Below are positions 10,324 to 26,631 of a DNA stretch of 64,000 bases, in pieces. The stretch covers positions 16,971-80,970 of the forward strand of contig JAYPUA010000004.1 in the NCBI GenBank assembly GCA_038133845.1, in the 5' to 3' direction. Positions within the stretch are counted from its first letter, which is position 1. Each line of letters begins with the position of its first letter. The translations under genes and the position numbers were made by a program. Source of the DNA: Deltaproteobacteria bacterium. GTDB taxonomy: Bacteria; SAR324; NAC60-12. The notes beneath the pieces are model-generated. The model made no database searches, had not been told where the DNA came from, and saw only the letters and a list, made by a program, of their open reading frames with translations.

Positions 10324-11064
10324 TCACGGCGTGGGGGGAACCACAGGATTCCCGGCCTGGATCCAGTGGGTGATGCCCTGCTTGACGTTGTAGACCTTCT
10401 GGTAGCCGGCCTGTTCGGTGATCAGCTGGGCGATCAGCGAGGTCCGGTTGCCAGTGCGACAAATCAGGATCACCTCTTCGCCTGGCTGAACGTACTCGGT
10501 GAACTTGCCGGGGAAGTCTCGGTTGAAGTTCCCTTGAGCGTCAAAGGCCGTGATCAGCTCGCTTCCAGAGACAACCCCGGTCTGCTTCCACTCTTCCACA
10601 CGCCGGATGTCCACAATCTTGACCTTGCGCTCCAAGAGCCTCTGCAGCTCCGCGTTGTCGATGTTCCGATAGCCGGGAGGGAGGACCTGGAGCAGCTCGA
10701 TCTCGAACTTCAGAGTTGCATTTGGAGGGATCACTCCACCCGCACCACGAGGACCATACGCCAGCTCCGGAGGAATGATCAGTGTACGCGTTCCGCCTTC
10801 CTTCATGCCGAGCACCCCCTGCTCCCAGCCAGGAATCACCTGTCCGTTGCCGATGGTGAACTGAAAGGGCTGGTTGCGCTCTCGGCTGGAGTCAAAGGAC
10901 GTACCGTCCTCGAGCCATCCGGTGTAGTGCACGGAGACCCGAGAGTGCTGTTCTGCCACGGCCCCGGTCCCCGAGGTTTCATCGCGGATTTCCAGCCCTG
11001 CCGCGCTCAGCCCCGACACAGACAGGAGCAGCGCTGCCAAAGAGAGAAAGGCTCCAAGCTTCAT
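10324..11064 (-). CDS. Secreted FKBP-type peptidyl-prolyl isomerase fused to a C-terminal rhodanese domain.
   Basis: Signal peptide. FKBP core [16 protein letters not shown]...[13 protein letters not shown], then a rhodanese active site ICRTGNRTS (CRxGxR). Confidence 0.75.
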
Positions 11065-11273
11065 GCGGCCTCGGTGCTGGCGCTGAACCCGGCCTGCTGG
11101 ACTGCCTGGATCAAGGACTCCGGAGAGGCTTCGCCCTCAACTCGGGCGGACTTTTCGTCCAGGTTCACCTCAGCCTCCTGTACACCCGGCACAGCTTTGA
11201 GCGCGTCCGTAACGGCGCTGACGCAGCCTTGGCACTTCATGCCGTCGATCTGAAGAGCGGTTGTTGTACTCAT
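11061..11273 (-). CDS. Heavy-metal-associated (HMA) domain copper chaperone, CopZ-like.
   Basis: GMKCQGC metal-binding motif (GMxCxxC). The start was placed at the internal MSTTTALQ rather than the longer ORF. Confidence 0.75.
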
Positions 11274-11428: not shown

Positions 11429-14400
11429 CTACTCCAACTCCCCCTGGATCTGAACAACCGCCTCCTCCAGCGCATTCAGCGTCTCGGGGTTGGCGTCTTC
11501 CCAGAGTTGGCGCTCGTGGGCCTCCAGCAACCGCTGTGCAGCGTCTCGGAGAGCGAGGGGGTTGTGCTCCCGGAAGAAGTGCTGTTGCTCCGGGTCGAGC
11601 AGCAGCTTCTGGGCGACCTCCTCGTACTGGTAATCCGCAACAATGTCGCAGGTCGCATCGTATCCGAACAGGTAGTCCACCGTGGCCGCCATCTCGAAGG
11701 CGCCCTTGTAGCCGTGTTCACGCATCCCGGAGATCCACCTGGGGTTGAGGACGCGGCTGCGAAAAACCCGGTTGAACTCTTCCTTGAGTGTGCGGATCTT
11801 CACCCGATCCGGATTGGCTGAGTCTCCGTGGTAGGTCACCGGAGCCTGTCCCCGCAACTCAGAGACCGCCGCGTGCAGGCCTCCTTGAAACTGGAAGTAG
11901 TCGTCAGAGTCGAGCAGGTCGTGCTCCCGGTTGTCCTGATTCTGGTGCACGATCTCCACAGAGGAGAGCCGGTCTCGGAGCAGGGCGATCTCTTCGCTGC
12001 TGGAACCGTCTGCGCGGTAGGCGTGCCCGCCCCATTTGAGGAAGACCTCCGTCAGGTCTCCCCGCGACTCCCAGGTTCCGGCATCAATGAGCGGAAGCAG
12101 GCCGGTCCCATAGCATCCGGGTCCAGAGCTGAAGACTCGCAGCTCCGCGAGCTGTTCGGCGACCTCTGCGGCGTGACCGGATTGCTTGAGCTGCTGCTGG
12201 TCGCGAAGCCAGGCGGCACGGATCGGGTTCTGGTCTTCCGGCTCATCCAGGGCGGCCAGGCGCTTGGGGATGGTGGCAAGCAGGCGCATCGCCTCTCCAA
12301 AAGCGTCCCGGAACATCCCGGAGACCCGGAGCACCACATCGACCCTCGGGCGTCCAAGCTGTGAGAGCGGGACGATTTCAAAATCGACCACTCTCCCGGA
12401 AACCGGCTCCCAGACCGGCTCACACCCCCAAAGCCAGAGCGCCTGAGCGAGATCATCTCCTCCGGTGCGCATGTTGGATGTTCCCCAGATCACGAGGGCC
12501 AAGGTCCGGGGCCACTCCCCGTGGTCGCTCCGGTAGCGCTCCAGCAGCTCCTCTGCGAGCCGCTGCCCGCACCTCCACGCAGTCTGGGTGGGAATCACCC
12601 GCGGATCAACGGAGTAGAAATTCCGCCCGGTCGGCAGCACATCAACCCGGCCTCGTGTGGGCGCCCCGGAGGGTCCGGGAGCGAGAAACTTTCCGGAGAG
12701 GCCATCCAGCAGCCGCTGCGGTTCCAGGGCGCAGCGTTCCAGACGCGGCAAGAGGGTCTCGTGCAGCCAGCACCGCAGGGTGTGCAGGGCCTCCTTCCGG
12801 GCGACCGGGACATCGACAACGTCTTCAGGCAGCGCCTCCGGAGCCTCCGAGGCCACCCCGCACTCGTACGCCACCCAGCCTCGTGCCTGCTGCTCCACCT
12901 GCTCCCGCTCAGTGATCGAGAGGGTCTCCAGGTCGAAGCTCGAAGGCTGGCCGAGCAGCGCCTGCAGCAGCCCGGGACGCTCCACCGAAGACATCCGGAG
13001 CAGGCTCAGCAGAAAGTCTACTCGACGTGACTCTTGGGGGACCTCTCCAAAGATGTGCAATCCGGAGCGGATCTGGCTCTCCTTCAGCTCGCACAGGTAG
13101 TTGCTGAGCGCATTGAGCCAGTCGTCCTCCTCCGGAAGCTCTTCTCTCCACGGAGCCTCTTCGAGCAGGTGCTCGATCTGATGCTCAAGTTCATGAGCAC
13201 GTTCCGGATAGAGCGTTTCGCAGTGGGCGTGTTCTTCCAGCAACCGCTCGACACGATCCAGCTCATCGTACAACCCAGCCCGGGTGAGCGGCGGCGTGAG
13301 GTGATCGACGATCACTGCAGAGGTCCGACGCTTGGCCTGCGTGCCCTCTCCGGGATCGTTGACAATGAACGGGTACAGGTGCGGCACAGGCCCCAGCACA
13401 GCCTGCGGAAAATCCTCCGGCCCCAGCGCAACGCTTCGTCCGGGCAGCCACTCGAGGTTGCCGTGCTTTCCAAAGTGGATGAGGGCGTGAGCCTGAAAGT
13501 GTGTCCGGATCCAGTGGTAGAACGCGAGGTAGCGCGGGGGAGGGGAGAGTTCCGGGTCGTGGTAGATCGCCTGGGTCTGCAGGCCAAACCCGCGCTGAGG
13601 CTGAATCCCGATGAAGACGTTTCCAAAGCAAATCCCGGAGACCGGAATCGGTGCTTCGGCCAGATCAGAGAGGTCCCACTGCTCCTGCAGGCGCTCACGC
13701 ATGGCCTGAGGGAGTCGGGAGGTGAACTCTCTCAGCTCTGCCGCAGGAACCCACTGGGCGAGCGGTTTGCCGTAGCTCTGCTCTTCGTCATTCGTGATTC
13801 CAGCCTGCAGTTCACGGATTAGCTGATCACCATCTTCCGGAAGCACCCCGACCTCGTAGCCTGCCGCCTTCAGGTGCTGCAGAAACTTCACGACGCTTGC
13901 CGGAGTATCCAGCCCCACCCCGTTTCCCAAGCGGCTGTCATGGTTGGGGTAGTTGGCCATGATGAGAGCAATCCGCTTCTCCGAGTTGGCCAGCTTCCGC
14001 AGCTGCACCCAGTTTCGGGCCAACTCTGCCACGTGAGCGACCTGATCCGGATCCGGGACGACCGCCTTTGCCTGGAACTCCAGCTCCGGGTGAGTCTCCT
14101 GAGCCTCCTTGAACCCCACGACCGTGGTCAGCACGCGACCATCGGTTTCCGGAAGCGCAACCGACATGGCCACGTTGGAAGGGCTCAGGCCCCGCGGATT
14201 CTTCATCCAGGCCTCCCGGTTCTCTGTCGAGGCGATCACCTGCAGGACCGGGCAGCCCAAGGTTTCCAGAAAGGAGACCCGCTCATCCAAGCGACCGATG
14301 GAAAAGCTTTGAAGCGTAAGCACCACATCCGGAGGCTCCAGTTCTGCCCGACGCAACAGCTCCTCCTGCGCTGCAGGCTCGCGCAGAGAGTAGGCATAGA

Positions 14401-14785
14401 ACGCGGAGACCTCGAGCCCGTACGTGGTCAGGGCCTCGGCAAGCGCATCCACCACGGCAAGATCGCCTGTCTGATGCCAGGCTCGATAGAAGGTGATCCA
14501 GACGCGTTGAGGCGGTGAGAGCGTGGGAGGAAAGAGGTCCATGTGTTGAAGTGCTTTTGTGACCATTGTTGTTCTGAGCGTTTTCAGCGCCGCGCCTTGG
14601 CGTGAAGCCATCGAGGTGGGCGGCACTTTCGAGGTGTCGCACAAGGTTTGAATTGTACGGATGTCCGGGGCACCCTGCAACAGGGACGTCGCAAACAACC
14701 TTTCGCATGAATCCGCAGCGTCATGTAGGGCGTTGCGGTCTTTTTGCCTTGCCGGTCGAGTGGTTCTCTCGTATGTTCCGAACAA
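11429..14785 (-). CDS. CobN / Mg-chelatase large-subunit family protein. The N-terminal domain appears absent or degenerate.
   Basis: CobN motifs are present (VWITFYRAWHQTGDLAVVDALAEAL, FGKHGNLEWLPG). The first ~85 codons of the ORF look non-proteinaceous. The recognisable homology begins near MDLFPP, which corresponds to about residue 170-200 of canonical CobN. Confidence 0.65.
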   Translation of the reverse strand: MFGTYERTTRPARQKDRNALHDAADSCERLFATSLLQGAPDIRTIQTLCDTSKVPPTSMASRQGAALKTLRTTMVTKALQHMDLFPPTLSPPQRVWITFYRAWHQTGDLAVVDALAEALTTYGLEVSAFYAYSLREPAAQEELLRRAELEPPDVVLTLQSFSIGRLDERVSFLETLGCPVLQVIASTENREAWMKNPRGLSPSNVAMSVALPETDGRVLTTVVGFKEAQETHPELEFQAKAVVPDPDQVAHVAELARNWVQLRKLANSEKRIALIMANYPNHDSRLGNGVGLDTPASVVKFLQHLKAAGYEVGVLPEDGDQLIRELQAGITNDEEQSYGKPLAQWVPAAELREFTSRLPQAMRERLQEQWDLSDLAEAPIPVSGICFGNVFIGIQPQRGFGLQTQAIYHDPELSPPPRYLAFYHWIRTHFQAHALIHFGKHGNLEWLPGRSVALGPEDFPQAVLGPVPHLYPFIVNDPGEGTQAKRRTSAVIVDHLTPPLTRAGLYDELDRVERLLEEHAHCETLYPERAHELEHQIEHLLEEAPWREELPEEDDWLNALSNYLCELKESQIRSGLHIFGEVPQESRRVDFLLSLLRMSSVERPGLLQALLGQPSSFDLETLSITEREQVEQQARGWVAYECGVASEAPEALPEDVVDVPVARKEALHTLRCWLHETLLPRLERCALEPQRLLDGLSGKFLAPGPSGAPTRGRVDVLPTGRNFYSVDPRVIPTQTAWRCGQRLAEELLERYRSDHGEWPRTLALVIWGTSNMRTGGDDLAQALWLWGCEPVWEPVSGRVVDFEIVPLSQLGRPRVDVVLRVSGMFRDAFGEAMRLLATIPKRLAALDEPEDQNPIRAAWLRDQQQLKQSGHAAEVAEQLAELRVFSSGPGCYGTGLLPLIDAGTWESRGDLTEVFLKWGGHAYRADGSSSEEIALLRDRLSSVEIVHQNQDNREHDLLDSDDYFQFQGGLHAAVSELRGQAPVTYHGDSANPDRVKIRTLKEEFNRVFRSRVLNPRWISGMREHGYKGAFEMAATVDYLFGYDATCDIVADYQYEEVAQKLLLDPEQQHFFREHNPLALRDAAQRLLEAHERQLWEDANPETLNALEEAVVQIQGELE

Positions 14786-14950
14786 GCTGGGGCTCTGGAA
14801 TCACCCTGAACCCTGGCGCGTTTCCTGAGTCCCCAAAGAGCCCCCCCAATGCCATGGGGCAGCTGCCGATCGCAGAGTGCGAGAGTACCCCTTGGCAGGC
14901 TCCAAATTCAAGCACGGGAACAGGAGAAACTCCATTGTGAAAAAAGCTTC

Positions 14951-15526
14951 ATGGCATCGAAGAAGTTCGCGTCAGTATATCAGGTAAAGGCTACTCTAGA
15001 CTACATTCGGCCTCCAATTTGGAGGCGGTTTCAGGTGCCCAGCCACATCACTCTGTATGATCTGCACAGAGTTCTGCAAGTTGTGATGGGGTGGGAGGAT
15101 GCACACTTGCATCAATTCATAATTCAAGGGCAATTTTTTGGACTTCCTGAAGATGACATACTTGACGAGGAGATTATTGATGAACGCAAAGTGACGCTCA
15201 ATCAGATCCTGGTTCAGGAGAAGATGAAATTCAAATATGAGTACGACTTTGGGGACAGCTGGTCCCACACAATCCTGGTTGAAAAAATCCTGGAACCAGA
15301 GAAGGGTGTCCTCTACCCTGTGTGTCTGAAAGGAAAACGCAACTGTCCACCGGAAGACTGCGGTGGTGCTCCTGGATACGACTACTTGCTTGAGGTCTTG
15401 AAGAGGCCCGAAAGCAAGGAGTACAAGCAGTACAAGGAGTGGCTCGGCGAGCCTTTTGACTCGGAAGAGTTTGACCTCCAGGAGATCAACAAAGCTCTCA
15501 AAAAAATCCGCAAAAAAATCTCATAA
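14951..15526 (+). CDS. Plasmid pRiA4b ORF-3-like family protein (PF07929-like).
   Basis: IRPPIWRRFQVPSHITLYDLHRVLQVVMGWEDAHLHQF matches the family core. Local GC drops to about 48%. Confidence 0.6.
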   Translation: MASKKFASVYQVKATLDYIRPPIWRRFQVPSHITLYDLHRVLQVVMGWEDAHLHQFIIQGQFFGLPEDDILDEEIIDERKVTLNQILVQEKMKFKYEYDFGDSWSHTILVEKILEPEKGVLYPVCLKGKRNCPPEDCGGAPGYDYLLEVLKRPESKEYKQYKEWLGEPFDSEEFDLQEINKALKKIRKKIS

Positions 15527-15549
15527 TGCTCACATGGCCTCGAGCTCAA

Positions 15550-15774
15550 ATGAGTTTAATCCTCAAGAAAAAAATGATCTTGTTCAGCATTTTTGGGCTC
15601 CTGCTTGGTGGAGCGTTGGGGGCAATCGAGACGGTGTTTTATCAGTACGTCAATGACGAAGGGGTGCTGGTGGAGAGCTTCTTTATGCCGCTCAGCATCC
15701 TGAGCCTGTTTTTGGGCGGTGCAGGCTTGGTCGTTGCTGCAACCAGGTCCATGGCTGAAGCCATTCGCAGTTGA
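15550..15774 (+). CDS. Small two-TM membrane protein, hypothetical.
   Basis: Hydrophobic segments ILFSIFGLLLGGALGAI and LSILSLFLGGAGLVVAA. It lies inside the low-GC islet. Confidence 0.35.
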   Translation: MSLILKKKMILFSIFGLLLGGALGAIETVFYQYVNDEGVLVESFFMPLSILSLFLGGAGLVVAATRSMAEAIRS

Positions 15775-15780
15775 TGGCGG

Positions 15781-16179
15781 ATGCCGAAGCGAGCGATGAG
15801 CAGGATTCTGATACAGCTGTTGTTGGCTTCAGCACTCCTGTGTCCCTGGCCCACTCAGGCCGCACCACCGCAGGTGGGTGACCGAGTTGAAGGAGGCGTG
15901 TTCCTTTACAGGGAAGCCGTCGAGAGGTACTGGAACGACTGGGTCGGCTTTCCGCTGATGACGGACACGGCTTCGGCAACTCGTCAGGCTCGGTTGACGA
16001 TCGTGGGGGAGGGAAAAACAGCCCTGTTTATCGGAAATCTGAGCATCAACTGTGAGAGCGGGAAGTCTTTTTGGGAGAGCGCCGGAAGTCATTCGGAGTT
16101 CCTCTCAAGCGAAGAGGACGCCCGGAAGCTCGTCCCGGCTCCGGCTCTCCGCAATGCGGCACGGCTGTTCTGTGAGTGA
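15781..16179 (+). CDS. Secreted hypothetical protein.
   Basis: Signal peptide MSRILIQLLLASALLCPWPTQA. No recognisable domain. Confidence 0.4.
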   Translation: MPKRAMSRILIQLLLASALLCPWPTQAAPPQVGDRVEGGVFLYREAVERYWNDWVGFPLMTDTASATRQARLTIVGEGKTALFIGNLSINCESGKSFWESAGSHSEFLSSEEDARKLVPAPALRNAARLFCE

Positions 16180-16226
16180 GCGCAAAACCGGGAGCTCGGA
16201 AGCTCCCCGGCCAAGCACTCCAAGAC

Positions 16227-16354
16227 CGGGCAACGTGATTTTGCTCAACGGAGCCTCCAGTTCGGGCAAGTCAACACTGGCCCAAGATCTTCAAGCGAGG
16301 CTGGACGAGCCGTTCTGGCACTTTTCAATCGACCATCTGATCGCCCCAATATGA
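16227..16354 (+). pseudogene. N-terminal remnant of a chloramphenicol-phosphotransferase-like (CPT / zeta-toxin-like) P-loop kinase.
   Basis: VILLNGASSSGKSTLAQDLQARLDEPFWHFSIDHLI parallels the CPT N-terminus MIILNGGSSAGKS...LPEPWLAFGVDSLI, then stops after about 42 codons. The rest of the kinase is absent. Confidence 0.45.
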
Positions 16355-16445
16355 TTTGCGATTTCTTCGAGAACGGTATCTGTCAAGGCCGTTAAAACTC
16401 AAAGAAATCATCGTGCAAAAATTGGACTGCCCTCTCGAGTGGTCT

Positions 16446-17087
16446 TCAGGGCACAGGAATCGCTGAGATGAAGTCTTGGTAGTATGGCTGGTGGAACTCC
16501 CCCAGCAGGCGGGTCAACTCCGTCAGTGGGTCCGGATGGTCATCGACACGCAGGTTGCACCAAGGGAACGGTTGTTCCCGGATGGTCAGCAGCGCGGCAG
16601 ACTGTCGCCCCCTGCGGTCGCCTCCCGCCTCCTCTCCGGAGCGCAGGGCCCGAAGCAAACGCACCTCCAAGGCCATCCCGGAAGAGGCCTTCAAAGAGTT
16701 GACACAGGCGTCGACCACCTCGGGACCTGCCAGCAGATTTCCTGCAACGCTGTAATCCTCTCCTCCTTGATGTCCGGCCCAACCCTGGGCCTTAGCCCCG
16801 GTCCAAGCCCAGGACCTTCCGGAGGCATCCACGCCATGCACCTGCCGTGCGGGGGCTTCTGCATCCTGTGCCAACTCTTCCTCCAGCGCGGTCCTGATGT
16901 CTGCTCCGGAAGCCACTCGCTCCAGCCCCTGCAGCCCCAAGTGAGGATTCGTGGAGGCCTGGGTGGCAATGGCTCCCACTCTGGAGCGCAGGTGGGGGAC
17001 CAGCGCTCCTACGGCAAAGTGTCTCGTTGCGACCGCAACGCCAAAGTGATTCCGCTCCGGGTCTCGGAGGACAATGGAATAGGTCAT
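16446..17087 (-). CDS. DUF1028 family protein (Ntn-hydrolase-like).
   Basis: MTYSIVLRDPERNHFGVAVATRHFAVGALVPH matches the DUF1028 N-terminus; the Thr after Met is a possible Ntn nucleophile. The ORF-track start at 17144 is TTG; the ATG is at 17087. Confidence 0.65.
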   Translation of the reverse strand: MTYSIVLRDPERNHFGVAVATRHFAVGALVPHLRSRVGAIATQASTNPHLGLQGLERVASGADIRTALEEELAQDAEAPARQVHGVDASGRSWAWTGAKAQGWAGHQGGEDYSVAGNLLAGPEVVDACVNSLKASSGMALEVRLLRALRSGEEAGGDRRGRQSAALLTIREQPFPWCNLRVDDHPDPLTELTRLLGEFHQPYYQDFISAIPVP

Positions 17088-17113
17088 CAGGCTGCCTCGT
17101 TCAGGTTTTCTTA

Positions 17114-17162
17114 AATTTATCATGATAAATTGTTGACACCGCAAAATTTATCATGATAAATT
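17114..17162. promoter_or_regulatory. Two copies of a perfect 18-bp palindrome AATTTATCATGATAAATT (17114-17131 and 17145-17162) bracketing a -35-like TTGACA (17133-17138).
   Basis: The repeats are read directly from the sequence. Spacing: -35 TTGACA, 17 bp, then ATAAAT at 17156-17161. They lie in the divergent promoter between the DUF1028 gene and the SBP gene. Confidence 0.5.
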
Positions 17163-17214
17163 CACGATGTTGCCGCAAGAGGGCACTCTATCCCCACTCT
17201 CTTTGGAGATGAAT

Positions 17215-18780
17215 ATGATGAAAAAAGCTTTCCAGCGGCTGCTGCTTGCGAGCGCAGCCTTGCTCAGCTTTGGGCCGATGGCACACGCTGCTACCCCAAA
17301 GGACGTCCTGGTGGTCGCCCAGATCGCTGAACCGAAGTCCATGGATCCGCACACGGTCACGGCCGTGAACGACTTCCGAATCCTGATGAACGTGTATGAC
17401 GGACTGGTTCGCTATCGCAGCGGAACCCTGGAGGTCGAGCCCGGACTCGCCGAGTCCTGGGAGATCAGTGATGATGGCCGAGTATATACGTTCTCCCTGC
17501 GCCGCGGGATTCAGTTCCACGACGGCACCCCGTTCAACGCGGAGGCTGTCAAGTTCAACTTTGATCGGATGTTGGTCAAGGACCACCCCTTCGCAGAAAC
17601 CGGGCCATTTCCGCTCTCGTTCTTCTTCTCCGCCATCAAGGAGACCACGGTTGTCGATGAGCACACGGTGCGGTTCCGCATGGACGACCCGTACGCCCCG
17701 CTGCTCTCCAACCTGGCTTACCCGACAGGCCTGATCCTCTCTCCGGCCGCAGTGCGCAAGCACGGCAAGGACGTTGGGCGGAATCCCGCAGGAACCGGGC
17801 CGTTTCGCTTCCGGGAATGGAAGAGCAACCAGCATGTGATCCTGGACCGCAACGACAACTACTGGGACGGACGTCCCGGACTGAAGTCCGTGGTCTTCCG
17901 CCCGATCACCGACGCGAACACCCGGGTCGCCGAGATGCTTTCCGGTGGCATCGACCTGATGGTCGAAGTTCCTCCGGACAATGTGGCCACCTTCGCCTCA
18001 AACAGCAAATACGCTCTGCACGAGCAGGCCGGACCGCACCTCTGGTTCCTGATCCTCAACCTCAAGGAGGGCCCGCTGCAGGACAAGCGCGTGCGCCAAG
18101 CGCTGAACTATGCCATCGACAAGAAGGCCCTCGTGGAGAACGTGCTTCAGAACACCGCCACGGTCGCCAGTGGCCCGACGCCTGCCGCGTTCTCCTGGGC
18201 CTACAACGACTCGCTCCAGCCCTACCCGCATGATCCGGGCAAGGCTCGAGAGTTGATCCGAGCCGCAGGTGCCGAGGGCGCCACGCTGACCTTCTACGTC
18301 ACCGAGGGCGGCTCCGGGATGCTGGATCCGATCCCGATGGGCACCGCGATTCAGGCGGACCTGAAGGCCGTCGGCCTGAACGTAAAGATCGAGACCTACG
18401 AGTGGAACACCTTCCTGGGCAAGGTGAACCCGGGGCTTGCCGGAAAGGCCGACATGGCCGAGATGGCGTGGATGACGAATGATCCGGACACCCTGCCCTT
18501 CCTCGCCCTGCGCACCGCAGCCTGGCCGGATCAAGGCGGATTCAACTCCGGCTACTACTCGAATCCTCAGGTGGACGAGTTGCTGGAGCAGGCTCGGGTG
18601 AGCACCAGTCAGACCGTTCGTGCCGCGCTCTACAAGGAGATGCAGCGGATCGTGTACGAAGACGCACCGTGGGTTTTCGTGGCCAACTGGAAACAGAACG
18701 CGGTCACCGGAAGCAGCGTGCAAAACTTCGGGCTGGAGCCTTCCTTCCTGCTGTTGCTTCACAAAGTCAGCAAGAACTGA
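17215..18780 (+). CDS. ABC transporter substrate-binding protein, family 5 (DppA/OppA-like).
   Basis: Signal peptide MMKKAFQRLLLASAALLSFGPMAHA. GGAG lies 6 nt upstream of the ATG at 17215. The product is about 520 aa with the SBP_bac_5 architecture. Confidence 0.85.
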   Translation: MMKKAFQRLLLASAALLSFGPMAHAATPKDVLVVAQIAEPKSMDPHTVTAVNDFRILMNVYDGLVRYRSGTLEVEPGLAESWEISDDGRVYTFSLRRGIQFHDGTPFNAEAVKFNFDRMLVKDHPFAETGPFPLSFFFSAIKETTVVDEHTVRFRMDDPYAPLLSNLAYPTGLILSPAAVRKHGKDVGRNPAGTGPFRFREWKSNQHVILDRNDNYWDGRPGLKSVVFRPITDANTRVAEMLSGGIDLMVEVPPDNVATFASNSKYALHEQAGPHLWFLILNLKEGPLQDKRVRQALNYAIDKKALVENVLQNTATVASGPTPAAFSWAYNDSLQPYPHDPGKARELIRAAGAEGATLTFYVTEGGSGMLDPIPMGTAIQADLKAVGLNVKIETYEWNTFLGKVNPGLAGKADMAEMAWMTNDPDTLPFLALRTAAWPDQGGFNSGYYSNPQVDELLEQARVSTSQTVRAALYKEMQRIVYEDAPWVFVANWKQNAVTGSSVQNFGLEPSFLLLLHKVSKN

Positions 18781-18844
18781 CTGGTCCTCCGGAGGCTCCT
18801 CTCTCCGAGGACCTCCGGATTTTTCCCCAGGACTCCCTCTGCCC

Positions 18845-19801
18845 ATGCTGCGCTACACGCTTCATCGCCTGCTGTTGACCCTCCCGGTGCTCTTCGGCAT
18901 CTCCGTGGTGGTCTTCCTGATCATGGCGCTGATTCCCGGAGATCCGGCCACCGCAATTCTTGGAGCGTTTGCCACTCCGGAGAACGCGGCAAAACTGCGT
19001 GCGGAGCTGGGGCTGGATCGTCCGCTGGTGGAGCAGTACTTCACCTGGGCCGGGAACCTGCTTTCCGGAGACTTCGGGCGCAGCTATGCCCTCAACCGTC
19101 CGGTGCTGGACGAGCTGCTGGAGCGGCTCGGCCCAACCCTCTTGCTGGCCGGATCTGCACTCCTGCTCTGTGTGATGCTGGGAGTGGTCTCTGGACTGCT
19201 GGCAGCAGTGAAGCAATACACCTGGGTCGATCAGGCCCTGACGCTGTTCACGCTGCTGGGCATCTCGGCGCCTTCGTTCTGGCTGGGGCTGATGGCGGTG
19301 TCCTTGTTTGCCGTCCAGTGGGGCTGGCTCCCAGCAAGCGGGATGTACACCCCATATGGAGATGAGAGCTTCTCCGATCTCTTTCAGCATCTGCTGATGC
19401 CTGCCGTGACGCTGGGGCTTGTGGCCTCCAGCGTGATCGCCCGCTTGACCCGAACGAGCATGCTGGAGCAGCTCCGTCAGGACTACGTCCGGACTGCCCG
19501 GGCCAAGGGAGAGCGCGAAACGGCAGTGGTGCTCAAGCACGCCTTCCGGAACGCGCTGGTTGGCCTGGTTCCTGTTCTGGGGCTGCAGGCCGGCTTTGTG
19601 CTGGGCGGCGCCGTCTACATCGAAACGGTTTTTCAGTGGCCAGGCATTGGGCGGATGCTGGTCAACGCGATCTCGACCCGCGACATCCTGCTCGTTCAGG
19701 GCGGAGTGATGATGGTCGCAACACTCTACGTGCTGCTCAACCTTTTGGCCGATCTGCTTCAGCATGCGCTCGACCCTCGCATTCAGCAAGGCCATGCCTG
19801 A
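18845..19801 (+). CDS. ABC transporter permease (DppB/OppB-like).
   Basis: MLRYTLHRLLLTLPVLFGISVVVFLIMALIPGDPA is a canonical DppB N-terminus. Confidence 0.85.
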   Translation: MLRYTLHRLLLTLPVLFGISVVVFLIMALIPGDPATAILGAFATPENAAKLRAELGLDRPLVEQYFTWAGNLLSGDFGRSYALNRPVLDELLERLGPTLLLAGSALLLCVMLGVVSGLLAAVKQYTWVDQALTLFTLLGISAPSFWLGLMAVSLFAVQWGWLPASGMYTPYGDESFSDLFQHLLMPAVTLGLVASSVIARLTRTSMLEQLRQDYVRTARAKGERETAVVLKHAFRNALVGLVPVLGLQAGFVLGGAVYIETVFQWPGIGRMLVNAISTRDILLVQGGVMMVATLYVLLNLLADLLQHALDPRIQQGHA

Positions 19802-21713
19802 GGGTTCCTCTCCTGCCCGGGAGTTCTGGCAGCGGCTGAACCGCAACCGGCTGAGCACCTTTGGCCTGATCATGCTCGCCCTGTTCGGAGTCCTGTGCCT
19901 GCTGACGCCTTGGCTCTCCCTCCCTGATCCGGATGCGACCAATCTGGCCAACCGCCTCAAACCCCCGCTGCATCCCGAGCACTGGCTTGGAACGGACGAG
20001 TTGGGCAGAGACCTGCTCTCCCGCCTGCTCTGGGGAACCCGGGTCAGCTTGGCCGTCGGCTTTGTCGCGACCTTCGCGGCGGCCGTGATTGGCAGCACCA
20101 TTGGGCTGGTTTCCGGCTACTTTCAAGGCTGGGTCGACAGCCTGCTGATGCGCGTGGTGGACACCCTGATGGCCTTCCCGTACATGCTGCTGGCGCTGGC
20201 GATTGTCGCTGCGTTTGGTCCGGGACTGCTCAACGCTCTGCTGGCGATCGCCATTGTCAACGTCCCGTTCTTCGCACGAACCATCCGCGGCGCAACGGTC
20301 TCTCTGGCAAGGCGGGAGTTCGTGCTCGCCGCACGCCTGGGCGGTGCCAGTCATGCCGAGGTGCTGTGGCGGGAGCTGCTTCCCAACATCCTTCCGGTGA
20401 TTGTGGTCACGATCTCCACCACAGCAGGCTGGATGATTTTGGAAACTGCCGGGCTGAGCTTTCTTGGGCTCGGGGCCCAGCCTCCCACTGCAGACCTCGG
20501 TTCCATGCTTGGAGAAGGGCGCAAGCTGCTCTTCACCGCACCACACGTTTCAACCATTCCGGGGCTGGTGATCCTGGTGCTGGTGATTTCCCTGAACCTG
20601 CTCGGAGATGGAGTCCGGGATGTGCTGGATCCCCGCCTGCGGGGAGGGGCACTACGGAGCCCTCAGGCACGCACGGAAATTCAGCGAAACGCTTCCCCCA
20701 AGCCGGGGAACGCGGACTCCGGGAAGCTGGTTGTCCGGAGCCTGACCACGGAGCTGCTGCAGCATGGGAAGGGACAGCCTCTGGTGCGCGGGGTGGACTT
20801 TGCGTTGAGACCAGGAGAATGCCTGGGCCTGGTAGGCGAATCCGGATGCGGGAAGTCGGTGACCGCGCTGTCTCTCTCGGCGCTGGCGGCTTCGCCTCCG
20901 CTGCGGATTACCTCCGGAGTGGTGGAACTGGAAGGGCAGGATCTGCTGGGGCTCCCGCTTTCGTTGCTGCAGGACCTGCGGGGCAAGCGTGTGTCCTACA
21001 TCTTCCAGGACCCGTTGGCCACGCTGAATCCGGTGCTGACCATTGGCGAGCAGCTACTGCAGGTCATCCGGCGGCACCAGCCCGTCACCGAGGCTCAGGC
21101 CCGAACTCAGGCGCTGGAGTTGCTGCGCCAAGTCCGCATTCCTTTCCCGGAATCTCGCCTGAGCGCTTACCCACACCAGCTCTCTGGAGGCATGCGACAG
21201 CGTGTGTGCATTGCGATTGCGCTGGCCAACCGTCCGGATGTGCTGATTGCCGATGAACCCACAACGGCGCTGGACGTCACCATTCAGGCGGAGATCCTCG
21301 CGCTGCTGAATGAGCTGCGTCGCGACTCCTCAAGTCCGGAGCGCCAAGGTACCTCCGGACTCTCGGTGCTGTTCATAACACACGACCTGGGGGTGGTCTC
21401 CACGCTGTGTGAACGGGTCGCCGTGATGTACGCCGGAGAAATCGTGGAGCTTGGAGAGACGCACTCGGTGCTGGAGGCTCCGGAGCATCCGTACACCCAG
21501 GCACTGCTCCGCTGCACCCCACGTCTTGGCTCGGGAGATCGGCTCTCTGGAGGAATTCCCGGAACCCCTCCAACTCCTGGCGCCTTCCCAAGCGGGTGTG
21601 GCTTTGCCACGCGCTGCGAGCGGGCCTCCGCTCAATGCGAACGTCCGGTCACCTTGCGCACCATGGTCTCCGGAAGGCAGGTGCGCTGTGTCCTCGCGGA
21701 GGAGCATGCCTGA
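19795..21713 (+). CDS. Fused ABC permease (DppC-like) and ATP-binding domain (DppD-like).
   Basis: The N-terminal ~300 aa have the DppC motif [17 protein letters not shown]. The C-terminal ~330 aa have Walker A GESGCGKS, signature LSGGMRQRV and Walker [12 protein letters not shown]. The ATG overlaps the dppB-like stop. Confidence 0.8.
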
Positions 21714-22674
21714 CGCTCTTCTTGAGCTGGAGCAGGTGAGCAAGGAGTTTGTGCTCCACCGCAGCGGCTGGACCCAGCGGGCGACCACCTTCCGTGCTGT
21801 CAACCAGGTGAGCTGGAAGGTGCATCCGGGAGAGGCGCTGGGAGTTGTGGGAGAGTCCGGGTGCGGGAAGTCGACGGTGGCCCGCATGGCGGTTGGCCTG
21901 GAGCCGCCGACCTCCGGAACGATCCGCTTCAAGGGGAAGCCGCTGTCCACATGGCTTGAGCAGGATCCGCAGACGCTGCGACGCTCCGTGCAGATGGTCT
22001 TTCAGGATCCGGCTGGCTCGCTCAACCCGCGCCAGCGCATTCGAGAGATCCTGGATCTGCAGCTCAAACGGTTGACGCGCTTGGGCCCGGAGCAGCGCCG
22101 CCAGCGCATCCGAGAAGTGCTGCAGCAGGTACAGCTCCCGGAGTCGACACTGGAGCGCTTCCCGCACGAATTCTCCGGAGGTCAGGCGCAACGGATCAGC
22201 ATCGCACGGGCGCTGGTCTCCTTGCCGGAGCTGCTGCTGCTCGATGAGCCGGTTTCGGCGCTGGATGTCTCGGTGCAGGCTCAGATTCTGCTGCTGCTGG
22301 AGAACATGCGGCAGGAGCTTGGAGTCGCTTACGTCTTCATCAGCCATGACCTGGCGGTGGTGGAACAGTTGTGTCCGAACACGGTCGTCATGTATGCCGG
22401 TGCCGTCGCCGAACAAGGCCCCACGGAGCGGCTCTTTCGACACCGCCGTCACCCGTACACGGACCTGTTGGTCCGCAGCGTGCCGGTCCCGGGGACCCCG
22501 CTTCAGCTGAAAACCCAGGGTTCCGGCGAGGTTGAGGTCTTGCCCGGATGCTCGTTTCGCAACCGCTGTCCCCGGGCTTCGGAGACCTGTGCTCAGGTTC
22601 CGGAGCTACAGCCGGTTTCCGAAACATCCCCGCACTTATCTGCCTGCCACTATCCACTTGACGAGGACGTGTGA
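21706..22674 (+). CDS. ABC transporter ATP-binding protein (DppF/OppF-like).
   Basis: Walker [10 protein letters not shown], signature FSGGQAQRI and Walker B LLLDEPVSALD. Confidence 0.85.
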   Translation: MPDALLELEQVSKEFVLHRSGWTQRATTFRAVNQVSWKVHPGEALGVVGESGCGKSTVARMAVGLEPPTSGTIRFKGKPLSTWLEQDPQTLRRSVQMVFQDPAGSLNPRQRIREILDLQLKRLTRLGPEQRRQRIREVLQQVQLPESTLERFPHEFSGGQAQRISIARALVSLPELLLLDEPVSALDVSVQAQILLLLENMRQELGVAYVFISHDLAVVEQLCPNTVVMYAGAVAEQGPTERLFRHRRHPYTDLLVRSVPVPGTPLQLKTQGSGEVEVLPGCSFRNRCPRASETCAQVPELQPVSETSPHLSACHYPLDEDV

Positions 22675-23717
22675 ACCAATCGGACTCCTTTCTGCTGGAA
22701 ACGCTCAGGGAGCTGATGCGTATCCCCAGCCCGAGCGGTCGGACCGAGGAGGTCGCTGCCTGGACCTCGGAGCTGCTCCGGAGCTGGGGGCTGTCTCCGG
22801 AGCCGACGCGTCGGGGGGCGCTCAAGCTGCGGCTTCCCGGAGCCGACGCCACACGTGCTCGCGCCCTGACGTCGCACTTGGACACGCTCGGGGCGATGGT
22901 CCGGCATCTCAAGGACAACGGACGCTGTGCCCTGGCCTCCGTCGGCACCTGGTCCAGTCGTTTTGCCGAAGGCGCCCGCGTCACGCTGCACACGGACTCC
23001 GGAGATCTCCGGGGGACGATCCTGCCGCTGCTGGCCTCAGGACACGCCTACAACGAGAAGGTCGATCAGCAGCCTGTGAGCTGGGATCAGTTGGAATTGC
23101 GTATCGATGAACGCTGCGACAGCCGCTCAGACCTGCAGACCCTGGGGGTGCAGCCCGGAGACTTTGTCTCCGTCGACACCGGGACGGAGGTCCTGGAGAA
23201 CGGATTCATCTTCTCGCGGCACCTTGATGACAAGGCCGGAGTAGCGGCGATGCTGAATGCGATCCGGCAAATTGTGCAGGAGCAGTGTCCCCTCCCCTGC
23301 ACCACCGACCTCATCTTCACAGTCCGTGAGGAGCTGGGAGACGGAGGAGCCGCGGTGCTCACCCCAGAAGTCTGGGAATTGGTCACCATTGACAACGGCG
23401 TGCAGGCCGGGACCCAACACTCTCGGGAGTTTGGCGTCACCCTGGCCATGGGAGACAAGACGGGGCCCTTCGACCGGAGGCTGATCCGGCATCTGGAGCA
23501 GCTCTGCCGTGAGCACGGCCTGGCGCATCAGCGCGACCTCTTCCGGCACTACCGCTCGGACCTCGCCGCTGCCGTTGAGGCCGGATATGACGTCCGGACC
23601 GCCCTGATCGCCATCGGGCTGGACGGAAGCCACGGGCACGAACGCACCCACCTGGATGCGATCCGAACCGCCTCAGAACTGGCCCGGCTGTACCTGCTTT
23701 CTCCTCTGCTGGACTGA
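22671..23717 (+). CDS. M42 family metallopeptidase (glutamyl-aminopeptidase / CelM-like).
   Basis: GTG start overlaps the dppF-like stop. Motifs SHLDTLGAMV and HLDDKAGVAAM are present, with M42 architecture. Confidence 0.75.
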   Translation: MNQSDSFLLETLRELMRIPSPSGRTEEVAAWTSELLRSWGLSPEPTRRGALKLRLPGADATRARALTSHLDTLGAMVRHLKDNGRCALASVGTWSSRFAEGARVTLHTDSGDLRGTILPLLASGHAYNEKVDQQPVSWDQLELRIDERCDSRSDLQTLGVQPGDFVSVDTGTEVLENGFIFSRHLDDKAGVAAMLNAIRQIVQEQCPLPCTTDLIFTVREELGDGGAAVLTPEVWELVTIDNGVQAGTQHSREFGVTLAMGDKTGPFDRRLIRHLEQLCREHGLAHQRDLFRHYRSDLAAAVEAGYDVRTALIAIGLDGSHGHERTHLDAIRTASELARLYLLSPLLD

Positions 23718-23723
23718 GTTCGC

Positions 23724-24953
23724 ATGCTGAGAATCGACGGATCCCGCCTCTGGCGCAGTTTGATGGAACTGGCTCAAATCGGCGCAACTCCTGAAGGAGG
23801 GGTCGCCCGTGTTGCGCTCAGTGAGGAGGACCGTCAGGCGCGAGACCTCCTCCGGAAATGGGCCGAGCCGCTTGTGGATGAGGTTCATGTGGACGAGGTC
23901 GGGAACCTGTTCTTCCTCCGCCATGGGCTGGACCCGGAAGCCCCAATGGTTCTCACCGGCAGCCACCTGGATACCCAGATTCACGGAGGGCGCTTTGACG
24001 GCGCCTTTGGGGTCATGGCCGGCCTGGAGGTGCTCCAGACTCTGGCCGATGCAAAGCGCCGTCTCTCCTGTGGGGTGGGGCTGGTTTGCTGGACCAACGA
24101 GGAAGAGGCCCGCTACTGTCCCGCAATGGGGTCGGCGGTGTTTGTAGGCAAGCAGGATCCGGAGACCGCCTGGGCCTGCATCGGGACGGATGGCAGCGTC
24201 TTTGGAGAGCAGCTGGAACACATCGGATATCGTGGATCGCGGTGGCCGCTGAGGATTCACTCTTACTTGGAAGCCCACATCGAGCAAGGTCCGGTGCTTG
24301 AGCAGGAGGGGCTGGAGGTCGGGGTGGTCACCGGAGCACAGGGCCAGGTCGCCCTGGATGTTGAAATTCATGGTGAGGCCGGACACTCCGGAACCGTCCC
24401 CATGCCCCTGCGTCATGATGCAATGGCCTGTGCCACCGAGGCAACCCAGGCCTGCCGTCACCTGGTTCTGCAGGAGGGGCGGGGAGTCTTCACAGTCGGC
24501 TTCTTCACCATGGAGCCCAATTCCCGTACGACCATCCCCAACCAGGTCCGCCTGGGCATCGACCTGCGTCACCCGGATTCGTCCTCGCTCGACCAGCTCA
24601 AGGCAGAGCTGACTTGCACCCTTCAGGAGATCGCCCAGACCCACGGATGCCGGCTGGAAGTCCGTGTGCTGTTCCAGAAGGAGCCCGTGGTGTTTGACAC
24701 GCGCTGCATTCAGGCGGTTCAGATTGCAACGGATCAGCTCCAGTACTCCTCACGCACCATGGCCTCCGGAGCGTTCCACGACGCCTGCCTGGTCGCCACA
24801 ATTGCCCCCACCGGAATGATCTTTGTTCCCAGCCAGCACGGAATCAGTCATAATCCCACAGAATACTCTTCGCCTGAACAGTTGGAGCGCGGGGGCAACG
24901 TTCTGTTGCACGCGCTCCTGCAACTCGCCGAGAGCATTCCCAATACGTCATGA
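23724..24953 (+). CDS. M20 family amidohydrolase (allantoate amidohydrolase / N-carbamoyl-L-amino-acid hydrolase-like).
   Basis: GSHLDTQIHGGRFDG and WTNEEEARY motifs; about 410 aa. Confidence 0.75.
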   Translation: MLRIDGSRLWRSLMELAQIGATPEGGVARVALSEEDRQARDLLRKWAEPLVDEVHVDEVGNLFFLRHGLDPEAPMVLTGSHLDTQIHGGRFDGAFGVMAGLEVLQTLADAKRRLSCGVGLVCWTNEEEARYCPAMGSAVFVGKQDPETAWACIGTDGSVFGEQLEHIGYRGSRWPLRIHSYLEAHIEQGPVLEQEGLEVGVVTGAQGQVALDVEIHGEAGHSGTVPMPLRHDAMACATEATQACRHLVLQEGRGVFTVGFFTMEPNSRTTIPNQVRLGIDLRHPDSSSLDQLKAELTCTLQEIAQTHGCRLEVRVLFQKEPVVFDTRCIQAVQIATDQLQYSSRTMASGAFHDACLVATIAPTGMIFVPSQHGISHNPTEYSSPEQLERGGNVLLHALLQLAESIPNTS

Positions 24954-25690
24954 CTGAAGACCTCTCGAAGAACTCGCGCAAGCGCTCGGACCTGGTTGCC
25001 GAGCAAATCAAGGAAGACATCATCACCAAGCGGCTCCCTCCGGGAGAGCGGCTGTCTGATGAGAAGGACTTCCTGAAGACCTACCGAGTGAGCAAGGGGA
25101 CCATGCGGGAAGCCTTGAAGGCTCTGGAAGTGCAGGGGCTGGTCAATATTCGCACCGGGCCTGGAGGAGGAGCCTCGGTCTCTCGAGTGAGTGCCGAGAA
25201 GGCCAACGAGTTGCTCTGGAACTACTTCTTCTCCCGGAATGTCTCCATCGAGGACATCTACGCTGTCCGCAAACTGGTCGAACCGGAACTGGCGGCCAAC
25301 GTTGCGCAGCACCTTGACGAAGAAGACCTCGCGCTCCTGGAGCAGTCCGTCGGACACTGCTCGATCAAGGGTTTTGAGTCCAACGACCGGGCCCAGCGGA
25401 TTCAGGAACTCGACTTCCACCTCGTCCTTGCAGACGCCTGTCCGAACCCGGTCCTTTCCTTCTTTGCCAAGTTCATCCTCAGCCTGCTCGCCCGGATCAT
25501 CATCCATGAGGACATGACTCCGGATCCGCAGATCAGCGAGCGCCACAGCCAGCAAGGGCTGGACTACCATCAGGCCCTTCTCCAGGCATTCCGGGCCCGC
25601 GACCCGGAAAGTGCCCGGCAGGTCATGATCGAACACATGGAGGCTGCCGAGTCTTTCATGCTGCAAAATTACTACTCCCCTGCTCGCTGA
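24950..25690 (+). CDS. GntR-family transcriptional regulator, FadR/FCD subfamily.
   Basis: N-terminal wHTH (LPPGERLSDEKDFLKTYRVSKGTMREALKALEVQGLV) plus a C-terminal FCD domain. The start overlaps the M20 stop (ATGA). Confidence 0.85.
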   Translation: MTEDLSKNSRKRSDLVAEQIKEDIITKRLPPGERLSDEKDFLKTYRVSKGTMREALKALEVQGLVNIRTGPGGGASVSRVSAEKANELLWNYFFSRNVSIEDIYAVRKLVEPELAANVAQHLDEEDLALLEQSVGHCSIKGFESNDRAQRIQELDFHLVLADACPNPVLSFFAKFILSLLARIIIHEDMTPDPQISERHSQQGLDYHQALLQAFRARDPESARQVMIEHMEAAESFMLQNYYSPAR

Positions 25691-25769
25691 TTTTGGTTGT
25701 TCCCCTGAGGTCAGGCTGAAACCCCGATCTGGCGCTATTTTATTTAAAATTAGCAAAATCAGTATTTTA

Positions 25770-25861
25770 TTGATTTTGTCCCTAATTTTCCGTCAGGTTT
25801 TGATTTTTATAAAATACTGATATAATTATAAATTAATCACTGGACCTGAATTATTACAAGG
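25770..25861. promoter_or_regulatory. AT-rich promoter module A, paralogous to module B at 26460-26577.
   Basis: It shares the blocks TTGATT, AATTTYCCGTSAGTTTT, TTTGATTTTTA and ATTAWTCACT...TGAA...CAAAGG with the second module. It also contains the inverted repeat ATCAGTATTTTAT / ATAAAATACTGAT. Confidence 0.4.
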
Positions 25862-26043
25862 CGATGTTTGACGAAGCCCAGAGACTTTGGTCTGATTAAG
25901 CCGAGCTTGGAAACACCAAGGTGAGCCTTGCCCACCCGGTAGCAACATCAAAGACGAGGCCTTGATGTTTTCAGGTTCGTACAACTTCAAGTTTGATGCT
26001 CCGACCTCGGAGCCTGTCTGCAAACCTCATTTCGAGCGGAACT

Positions 26044-26283
26044 ATGAGATCTCACTTCAACCGCATTCCTCTTGAGCAAAAGATGAAGTACTACCCGGAG
26101 CAGGCCGCTCCGACCAGCGAGGACATCAACGCAGCCATGAGCGAATTCCTGGTCAGGGGAGGTACCATTCAGCGTATGAGCAACCACGAAGTTGCCAACG
26201 TATACCAGCGCAAGGCCTACAGCCGGAATGGGATGCTCCCATTGATGGACGACGACATGGACTTCTTCAACGACTTCACCTGA
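26044..26283 (+). CDS. Small hypothetical protein (~79 aa), Cys-free, with an acidic C-terminus.
   Basis: ATG at 26044 (MRSHFNRIPLEQKMKYYPEQ...DDDMDFFNDFT). It is flanked on both sides by AT-rich intergenic regions. No family recognised. Confidence 0.4.
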   Translation: MRSHFNRIPLEQKMKYYPEQAAPTSEDINAAMSEFLVRGGTIQRMSNHEVANVYQRKAYSRNGMLPLMDDDMDFFNDFT

Positions 26284-26459
26284 CCTCCCTGCCAAGCCCG
26301 GACTCCTGAGCTTCTCGGCCTCCAAACAGCCTGGGAGTCCTGCCCTTCTTCCCTTGAAGTCCCCCGCCCTCTGTTGATGAGCCAAACCGGGGCCTTCCCC
26401 CTTGTTTGTTTTTGACAAAGTAACCTCCCGCTACGAGACATTTTTCATAAAAATTATTT

Positions 26460-26577
26460 TTTGATTAAATTTCCCGTGAGTTTTCCCTCATCCTCCTTGT
26501 TCGATAAATTGGAAATTTTTTGATTTTTAGTAAATTTATTTGATTTAATCAAAATTATTCACTAAATTGAACAAAGG
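26460..26577. promoter_or_regulatory. AT-rich promoter module B, upstream of the rhodanese-YeeE operon. Paralogous to module A.
   Basis: Same conserved blocks as module A, plus the near-palindrome TTGATTTAATCAA. Confidence 0.4.
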
Positions 26578-26631
26578 TTCGCTCCGGTTGTTCCGGGGCA
26601 AGGTTTCCAACCCTCGTTGAGAGAGATTGTG

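Follow-up and report, generated by a model that had tools for sequence, protein, structure and literature searches.

Gene content of the islet

The window analyzed here is a stretch of 64,000 nt (contig JAYPUA010000004.1, positions 16,971 to 80,970) from a metagenome-assembled genome (MAG) labelled Deltaproteobacteria bacterium. Between cobN, the gene of a cobaltochelatase subunit, and a DUF1028 gene, this window contains a short islet of low G+C content (GC). Three intact open reading frames (ORFs) lie within the islet, encoding a protein of the pRiA4b ORF-3 family (hereafter pRiA4), a DUF3955 mini-protein and a small secreted protein, and they are followed by the stump of a gene for a kinase of the chloramphenicol phosphotransferase (CPT) family (Table 1). 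Both ends of the islet are truncated genes: cobN on the left and the CPT kinase, cut after codon 37-39, on the right. For comparison we used contigs of the same species from other samples (99.4-99.9% identity), retrieved by exact-protein lookups with DUF1028 or with the substrate-binding protein (SBP) of a neighboring peptide ABC transporter, and eight genus-level loci obtained by scanning genome and metagenome collections; the named ones among the latter are 'Deltaproteobacteria bacterium' MAGs.

Table 1 Features of the islet and its flanks, in window coordinates (GC3, GC at the third codon position)
Feature	Position	Strand	Family or basis	GC	GC3
cobN (cobaltochelatase subunit), 5'-truncated	11429..14785	-	TIGR02257, PF02514		
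Left junction zone and spacer	14720..14950		End of CobN homology to pRiA4 start	~0.56	
pRiA4b ORF-3 (MM3350-like) protein, 191 aa, intact	14951..15526	+	PF07929	0.470	0.573
DUF3955 two-transmembrane mini-protein, 74 aa (82 aa from ATG 15526)	15550..15774	+	PF13127	0.507	0.653
Secreted or periplasmic small protein, 127 aa (132 aa from ATG 15781)	15796..16179	+	Signal-peptide-like N-terminus	0.589	0.672
CPT-family P-loop kinase stump, 39 codons + stop	GTG 16235..TGA 16354	+	PF07931	0.533	0.625
86-nt AT-rich tail	16346..16431		Between end of CPT homology and strain-level junction		
91-nt tail	16355..16445			0.44	
Right junction, where co-occurring strains diverge	16431..16432		14 nt past the DUF1028 stop codon		
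DUF1028 gene, conserved right flank, first gene of the syntenic core block 16456-25690	16446..17087	-	PF06267, E = 2.2e-68		

The first ORF matches PF07929 over its full length (E = 1.6e-68; 230.2 bits against a cut-off of 26.6; profile positions 2-173 of 173), which bears out the family assignment made in the initial annotation of this DNA. Residues 4-179 also match the solved structure 2I1S (E = 6.3e-43), which was deposited as a 'hypothetical protein'. As is typical of the pRiA4b ORF-3 / MM3350-like family, the islet protein is a full-length, single-domain polypeptide of ~190 aa. It stands apart in that it is merely 59-61% identical to its nearest homologues outside its own population, which come from scattered taxa; the few that carry a taxon name belong to Chloroflexi, Methanosarcinaceae, Moorella and Desulfomonile. 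Plasmids often carry the family, with a relative encoded in 2842 of the 72,556 records of PLSDB (mostly conjugative plasmids; best identity ~51%), whereas the islet copy is chromosomal and has no plasmid or insertion-sequence genes nearby. No functional study of the family was evident from the titles and abstracts returned by a full-text literature search and, as the family is without an established function, membership is uninformative as to mechanism.

The second ORF had been described as a two-transmembrane mini-protein, and this description holds. The protein matches PF13127 just over the gathering score (24.6 bits, cut-off 22; profile positions 3-58 of 59), and two hydrophobic stretches are recognized on reading the translation. 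The gene was called with 74 aa on two other contigs (L007 and L030).

The product of the third ORF has no match in Pfam. About 20 database homologues, 35-64% identical and likewise devoid of any Pfam domain, align with it to define a family in which a signal peptide is shared, 13 columns are invariant and two cysteines are conserved. In the AlphaFold2 model (mean pLDDT 87.7) the core is a beta-sheet, after which come two helices at the C-terminus, and the best fold match in the PDB reached E = 0.048 (TM 0.52, 9M3L). The earlier description of a secreted protein without a recognized fold is therefore upheld, both by the signal-peptide-like N-terminus and by the lack of a PDB match better than this value. 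Translation probably starts at 15796 and not at 15781; the former start is favored by one strain that has AGG at 15781-15783 and by the database cluster representative, which is 127 aa long.

The stump aligns with positions 1-39 of the 172 positions of PF07931 (E = 1.7e-12) and with residues 5-41 of the solved CPT 1GRQ. In common with CPT of Streptomyces venezuelae (1GRQ/1QHX) it has the N-terminal beta-strand, the Walker A P-loop (GASSSGKST) and the first helix, and its 'SIDHLI' motif aligns with 'GVDSLI' of the enzyme. The difference is one of extent: 37-39 of the ~172 residues are retained, so that 39 of 172 positions stand for what should be a complete domain. Full-length CPT relatives (172-196 aa) match 16226-16345 and nowhere else in the window, which places the cut in the kinase gene at ~16345. 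Past this position the three forward-frame translations hold no CPT-like continuation, and the full-length relatives do not match the tail. Uncharacterized CPT relatives of 162-196 aa are 78-89% identical to the stump over 33-36 aa. To judge from the sequence, the stump cannot be an active kinase; the window does not encode the remainder of the nucleotide- and substrate-binding fold. Its end is variable among strains: in contig L009, from a MAG, the stop codon TGA reads TGG and a 1-nt insertion follows 7 nt downstream, and the tail at 16346-16431 is polymorphic, with one indel and one single-nucleotide polymorphism (SNP). The initial annotation had proposed the relic of a CPT-like or zeta-toxin-like kinase; the CPT part of this proposal stands and the zeta part does not, for the zeta-toxin model (PF06414) was not among the Pfam matches at E <= 0.1, which comprised just CPT and generic AAA/kinase P-loop models. 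The stump is not accompanied by the partner gene of a toxin or resistance module.

A CPT-like ORF from a different organism (L039 positions 244-483; ENA ERZ28573513) is 80.6% identical in DNA to the stump over 98 nt. Its CPT homology also ends right after 'SIDHLI' and is followed by a Lys-rich tail. Many other top matches to the stump are short as well, and these reflect either a truncation recurring at the same point or partial gene calls.

Base composition

GC over 14930-15780 is 0.483 (48.3%) compared with a mean of 0.613 for the window, a deviation of z = -4.1 on a scale of 850-bp windows (standard deviation 0.031); over 14930-16445 it is 0.520. Just one other stretch of the window, ~25700-26600, is equally low. 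For a comparison by gene, we took as reference 23 neighboring genes from gene calls on same-species contigs, which have a mean GC of 0.617, a mean GC3 of 0.765 and a minimum GC3 of 0.692. The GC3 of all four islet ORFs is below the lowest of these 23 genes, and for pRiA4 it amounts to z = -4.4; the position-2 GC of pRiA4 is also very low (0.281). The strong dip is essentially made by the pRiA4 and DUF3955 genes, with the secreted-protein gene near host GC. The low-GC islet of the initial annotation is thus real and atypical in the GC3 of its four ORFs, but the edges given for it, 14930 and 16445, give way to ~14720-14790 and 16431, as detailed below.

The second dip reaches its minimum of 0.446 around 25726-26575 and contains a 79-aa ORF (26044-26283). 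It starts exactly at 25690, the other end of the core-block synteny with the genus-level relatives. Unlike the islet on the cobN side, this dip is no contig-break site, and it is spanned by contigs L040-L042.

The right junction in co-occurring strains

Co-occurring strains of the same species differ at 16431|16432. Position 16432 is the end of five Logan contigs, and a sixth ends at 16437. A contig from the Joint Genome Institute (L016) is colinear to 16432 and then presents 11 nt of differing sequence (GCCTGGGCATG, + strand), which has zero occurrences in the window and in the other fetched loci. Six contigs (L002, L007-L010 and L017) run on into the islet and reproduce its joint with DUF1028, with L007 spanning 15359-19920. 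The 10-12 kb to the right of the junction assembled without breaks.

Further contig starts are found inside the 3' end of DUF1028: 16556 is the exact first position of five contigs of the same species, from as many samples, and 16531 is that of one more. These suggest a further haplotype that diverges within the last ~110 nt of the gene. An 11-nt exact direct repeat, CCGGATGGTCA, at 16532 and 16578 flanks this 16531-16556 point.

Synteny with genus-level relatives

In the genus-level relatives, DUF1028 is 66-73% and SBP 89-93% identical to the proteins of the window, and the eight loci are colinear with 16456-25690 alone. Downstream of DUF1028, the islet genes and cobN are absent from all eight. 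One lineage has MlaA/MlaC/MMPL/purN-purM-purF-like ORFs at this place and another has a nucleoside-hydrolase-like ORF (named by eye); when these genes (L011, L014) were sought elsewhere in the window by tblastx, the searches gave noise or ABC-transporter paralogues. By gene order, then, synteny breaks repeatedly at the 3' end of DUF1028. The arrangement that the initial annotation regarded as the mark of an old, vertically inherited segment, namely these genes at the corresponding site, uniform in GC and with the CPT-like gene intact, was not found in the eight loci.

Two features of the conserved block deserve description. A perfect palindrome of 18 bp, rich in A and T (AATTTATCATGATAAATT), occurs in two identical copies at 17114-17131 and 17145-17162 (31 bp start to start), within the divergent intergenic region between the DUF1028 and SBP genes. 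No chance copy of it is expected and no third copy occurs in the window. On its sequence, the pair resembles operator sites, which may serve the GntR/FCD regulator encoded at 24950-25690. Farther on, 19764-21713 encodes a fused permease-ATPase of the peptide ABC transporter (649 aa; OppC_N, BPD_transp_1, ABC_tran), of which one strain has a 639-aa variant with another start.

Truncation of cobN at the left edge

The cobN ORF scores 1216.7 bits against TIGR02257 (cut-off 822), with the match running from ORF residue 92 over model positions 192-1222 of 1226, and it covers positions 71-1088 of 1090 in PF02514. Despite the score over the cut-off, the CobN equivalog is not covered from end to end. 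ORF residues ~93-97 correspond to residues 190-210 of the N-complete homologues, and weak in-frame CobN similarity can be traced to homologue residue ~131, at ~14719 in the window. CobN residues 1-130, strongly conserved motifs included, are absent from every frame of 14300-16500. By these alignments cobN is 5'-truncated, and it differs from CobN (TIGR02257) in that ~130 N-terminal residues are gone and the next ~60 are weakly homologous. Just upstream of 14785 the reading frame meets a stop codon; gene calling on L030 put the start at 14542. As CobN homology stops at ~14719, the left edge of the islet is at ~14720-14790 and not at 14930. A naturally short CobN subfamily was considered and rejected, for short matches such as P0123 proved to be gene calls that are frameshifted or incomplete. 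No promoter consensus was found in the spacer at 14720-14950, and 14300-17300 contains neither a cobalamin riboswitch nor any other RNA family (two Rfam miRNA matches on the palindrome AATTTATCATGATAAATT are spurious).

An independent assembly (L030, SRR26337570) reproduces the joint between cobN and pRiA4; it aligns colinearly with 13341-16057 at 99.78% identity. A clean insertion between intact cobN and DUF1028 genes, as had been assumed at first, does not agree with these data: cobN is decapitated, an empty site was not found among the fetched sequences, and in no relative are cobN and DUF1028 adjacent.

A small HMA metallochaperone gene (11061-11273) lies directly downstream of cobN, and after it comes an FKBP-rhodanese fusion gene. 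Among the ~25 named neighboring genes (~450-28800, the remainder of the window being unannotated) there is no cob gene and no cobS or cobT, so cobN stands alone. It is probably a pseudogene, or at least an aberrant gene. The 10 kb to the left of cobN assembles cleanly, and the same-species contigs that enter the gene from the left all break inside it, at 11175, 11714, 11926, 12346 and, twice, 13327. Such varied breaks in the body of cobN (11429-13341) suggest raised microdiversity or recombinant haplotypes.

Polymorphism among same-species contigs

Polymorphisms among the same-species contigs, with one to six contigs per position, were sorted by their effect on codons. For the pRiA4 protein, the 132-aa protein and the 232-aa DUF1028 ORF of the window itself, exact-protein lookups returned no match, as the strains diverge by 1-3 residues or in the start codon. 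The flanking core genes (FKBP-rhodanese, HMA, DUF1028 and SBP) have 22 synonymous changes and 1 non-synonymous change, the three islet ORFs have 2 and 9, and cobN is intermediate with 8 and 3. The contrast between islet ORFs and flanks has a Fisher p = 1e-5, or p = 8e-5 when the two changes upstream of 15796 are left out. The SNP spectrum of the islet is near-neutral, being that expected of neutral drift.

Comparison with plasmids, phages and mobile elements

At the DNA level, 14700-16460 has no match to a plasmid, and the three intact ORFs gave zero matches in PADLOC and PHROGs. The stump gave weak generic P-loop matches (PHROGs E = 6.7e-05, PADLOC 0.0017), and a defence-system or phage origin was rejected on these grounds. 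We also considered a target-site duplication in the form of the 9-mer TCGAGTGGT (14756-14764 and 16435-16443), the sole repeat shared by the two boundaries. About 0.6 chance matches of this kind are expected between two 400-bp zones, and the L016 allele does not read as a matching empty site, so this candidate was discarded too.

Homologues of the secreted protein occur, at two loci, in neighborhoods with mobile-element genes. The neighbors are a resolvase, Lar, PemK/MazE, RelE/HTH and a restriction endonuclease in the first case, and a primase-polymerase/D5_N, RadC, SprT and DUF433/DUF5615 in the second. At both of these loci, and at one locus of a pRiA4 homologue, the partner genes of the islet are absent. 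The genes do not travel together and they differ in GC; the islet thus looks like a mosaic remnant and not like a module.

Origin of the islet

We consider it likely that the islet, ~1.65-1.7 kb in length (~14720/14790 to 16431), is a decaying remnant of acquired mobile-element-type DNA at a rearrangement scar. Horizontal acquisition followed by erosion, which the initial annotation had read from base composition and the decayed kinase gene, is favored by the strain-level junction, the absence of the genes in relatives, the mobile-element homologues, the near-neutral SNPs and the stump with its polymorphic stop codon. In the sequence of events that we envisage, a longer stretch of foreign DNA (part of a plasmid or of an island) would have been joined beside DUF1028 by illegitimate recombination or insertion. 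Later deletions would have cost the segment its mobility functions, the kinase gene four-fifths of its length on the 3' side, and cobN both its 5' end and its promoter. The passenger genes that remain would be drifting under relaxed selection and heading for loss. We infer the order of these events, the mode of entry, and the islet event as the cause of the cut in cobN. As far as can be read from it, the islet would have no demonstrable function.

Several observations weigh against this account. None of the islet ORFs contains a mobility domain (integrase or transposase), the window has no tRNA gene, and no convincing flanking or terminal repeats are present at the islet boundaries; with all three missing, the mode by which the DNA arrived cannot be stated. 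Neither an empty site nor the full alternative allele was recovered from the fetched sequences, and the 11 nt of that allele that are seen do not demonstrate an insertion as opposed to another rearrangement. The secreted-protein gene, with a GC of 0.59, is near the host value, and the islet may accordingly be a mosaic of differing ages. The islet SNPs are few (11) and come from the same one to six contigs per position, and their non-synonymous excess can also be reconciled with diversifying selection. The three ORFs are co-directional and packed as tightly as in an operon, they are intact in every covering contig, and they may still be functional. Finally, cobN still looks selected, both in its ratio of 8 synonymous to 3 non-synonymous changes and in its intact ORF of >1000 codons, and this would be strange in a gene that lost its start long ago.

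The tight arrangement of the ORFs invites an alternative in which the intact pRiA4-DUF3955-secreted trio is a functional, strain-specific accessory operon (for example, an envelope-interaction or conflict module) that is carried by part of the population and is under diversifying selection. We regard this as unlikely, though it is the alternative with the most to commend it. The trio is co-directional with spacers of 0-23 nt and intact in all covering contigs; the conserved cysteines and 13 invariant columns of the secreted-protein family argue that elsewhere this is a real, selected protein; and strain variation of the presence/absence type is typical of accessory genes. Against it, the trio is found together nowhere else, its partners being absent at the three homologue loci described above. 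It matches no PADLOC defence model and nothing in PHROGs, the GC of its genes is unequal (0.47, 0.51 and 0.59) in a manner that suggests a mosaic, a truncated gene stands on either side, and one strain lacks the annotated ATG of the secreted-protein gene. The more specific proposal, in which the trio works in particular strains as an envelope or conflict module and diversifying selection on it explains the 9 non-synonymous changes among 11 polymorphisms, seems to us improbable.

Smaller still is the probability that the segment is old and vertically inherited and owes its low GC to amino-acid make-up, namely a Lys/Glu/Asp/Ile-rich pRiA4 protein and hydrophobic mini-proteins. Amino-acid content does explain part of the dip, as the position-2 GC of pRiA4 indicates, and the secreted-protein gene is near host GC. 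GC3, however, is largely free of amino-acid constraint and is also under that of every neighboring gene. In addition, all four ORFs are missing here from the relatives, close as their DUF1028 and SBP proteins are; pRiA4 has its closest homologues, at ~60% identity, in scattered taxa; and strains of the same species differ at the junction. An assembly chimera, in which a cobN fragment, foreign reads and the DUF1028 block were wrongly joined in a metagenome contig, is scarcely credible. The locus is a hot spot of contig breaks (16432, 16556 and several positions inside cobN), as a chimera might produce, but assemblies made independently, from other samples and by other pipelines, contain both joints at >99.4% identity.

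A decaying remnant of acquired DNA also places the locus in familiar company. Genomic islets are small insertions of horizontally acquired DNA that vary among strains and usually lack mobility genes; they are distinct from full genomic islands. The present locus resembles them in its size of 1-2 kb, its atypical GC and GC3, its location at a synteny breakpoint, the strain polymorphism at a sharp junction, the passenger-gene cargo and the adjacent gene remnants. It differs from them in that the empty-site allele was not recovered and no flanking direct repeats or tRNA gene are present here, and in that a chromosomal gene, cobN, is truncated at one edge, hence it is not a clean insertion. The locus is, with these differences, an ordinary instance of a well-known kind, a small genomic islet with gene remnants, and it calls for no new mechanism.

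Implications

The locus is a strain-variable hot spot in an uncultured estuarine/marine lineage labelled 'Deltaproteobacteria', and as such has little import beyond the annotation of this genome. Within that annotation, the cobN gene of this MAG lineage should be discounted as evidence of aerobic cobalamin synthesis in metabolic reconstructions. Were the trio to prove a module after all, it would provide the first functional context for the very large and uncharacterized pRiA4b ORF-3 family. The small, unnamed family of the secreted protein, given its mobile-element context at two loci, joins the known cargo of mobile elements.

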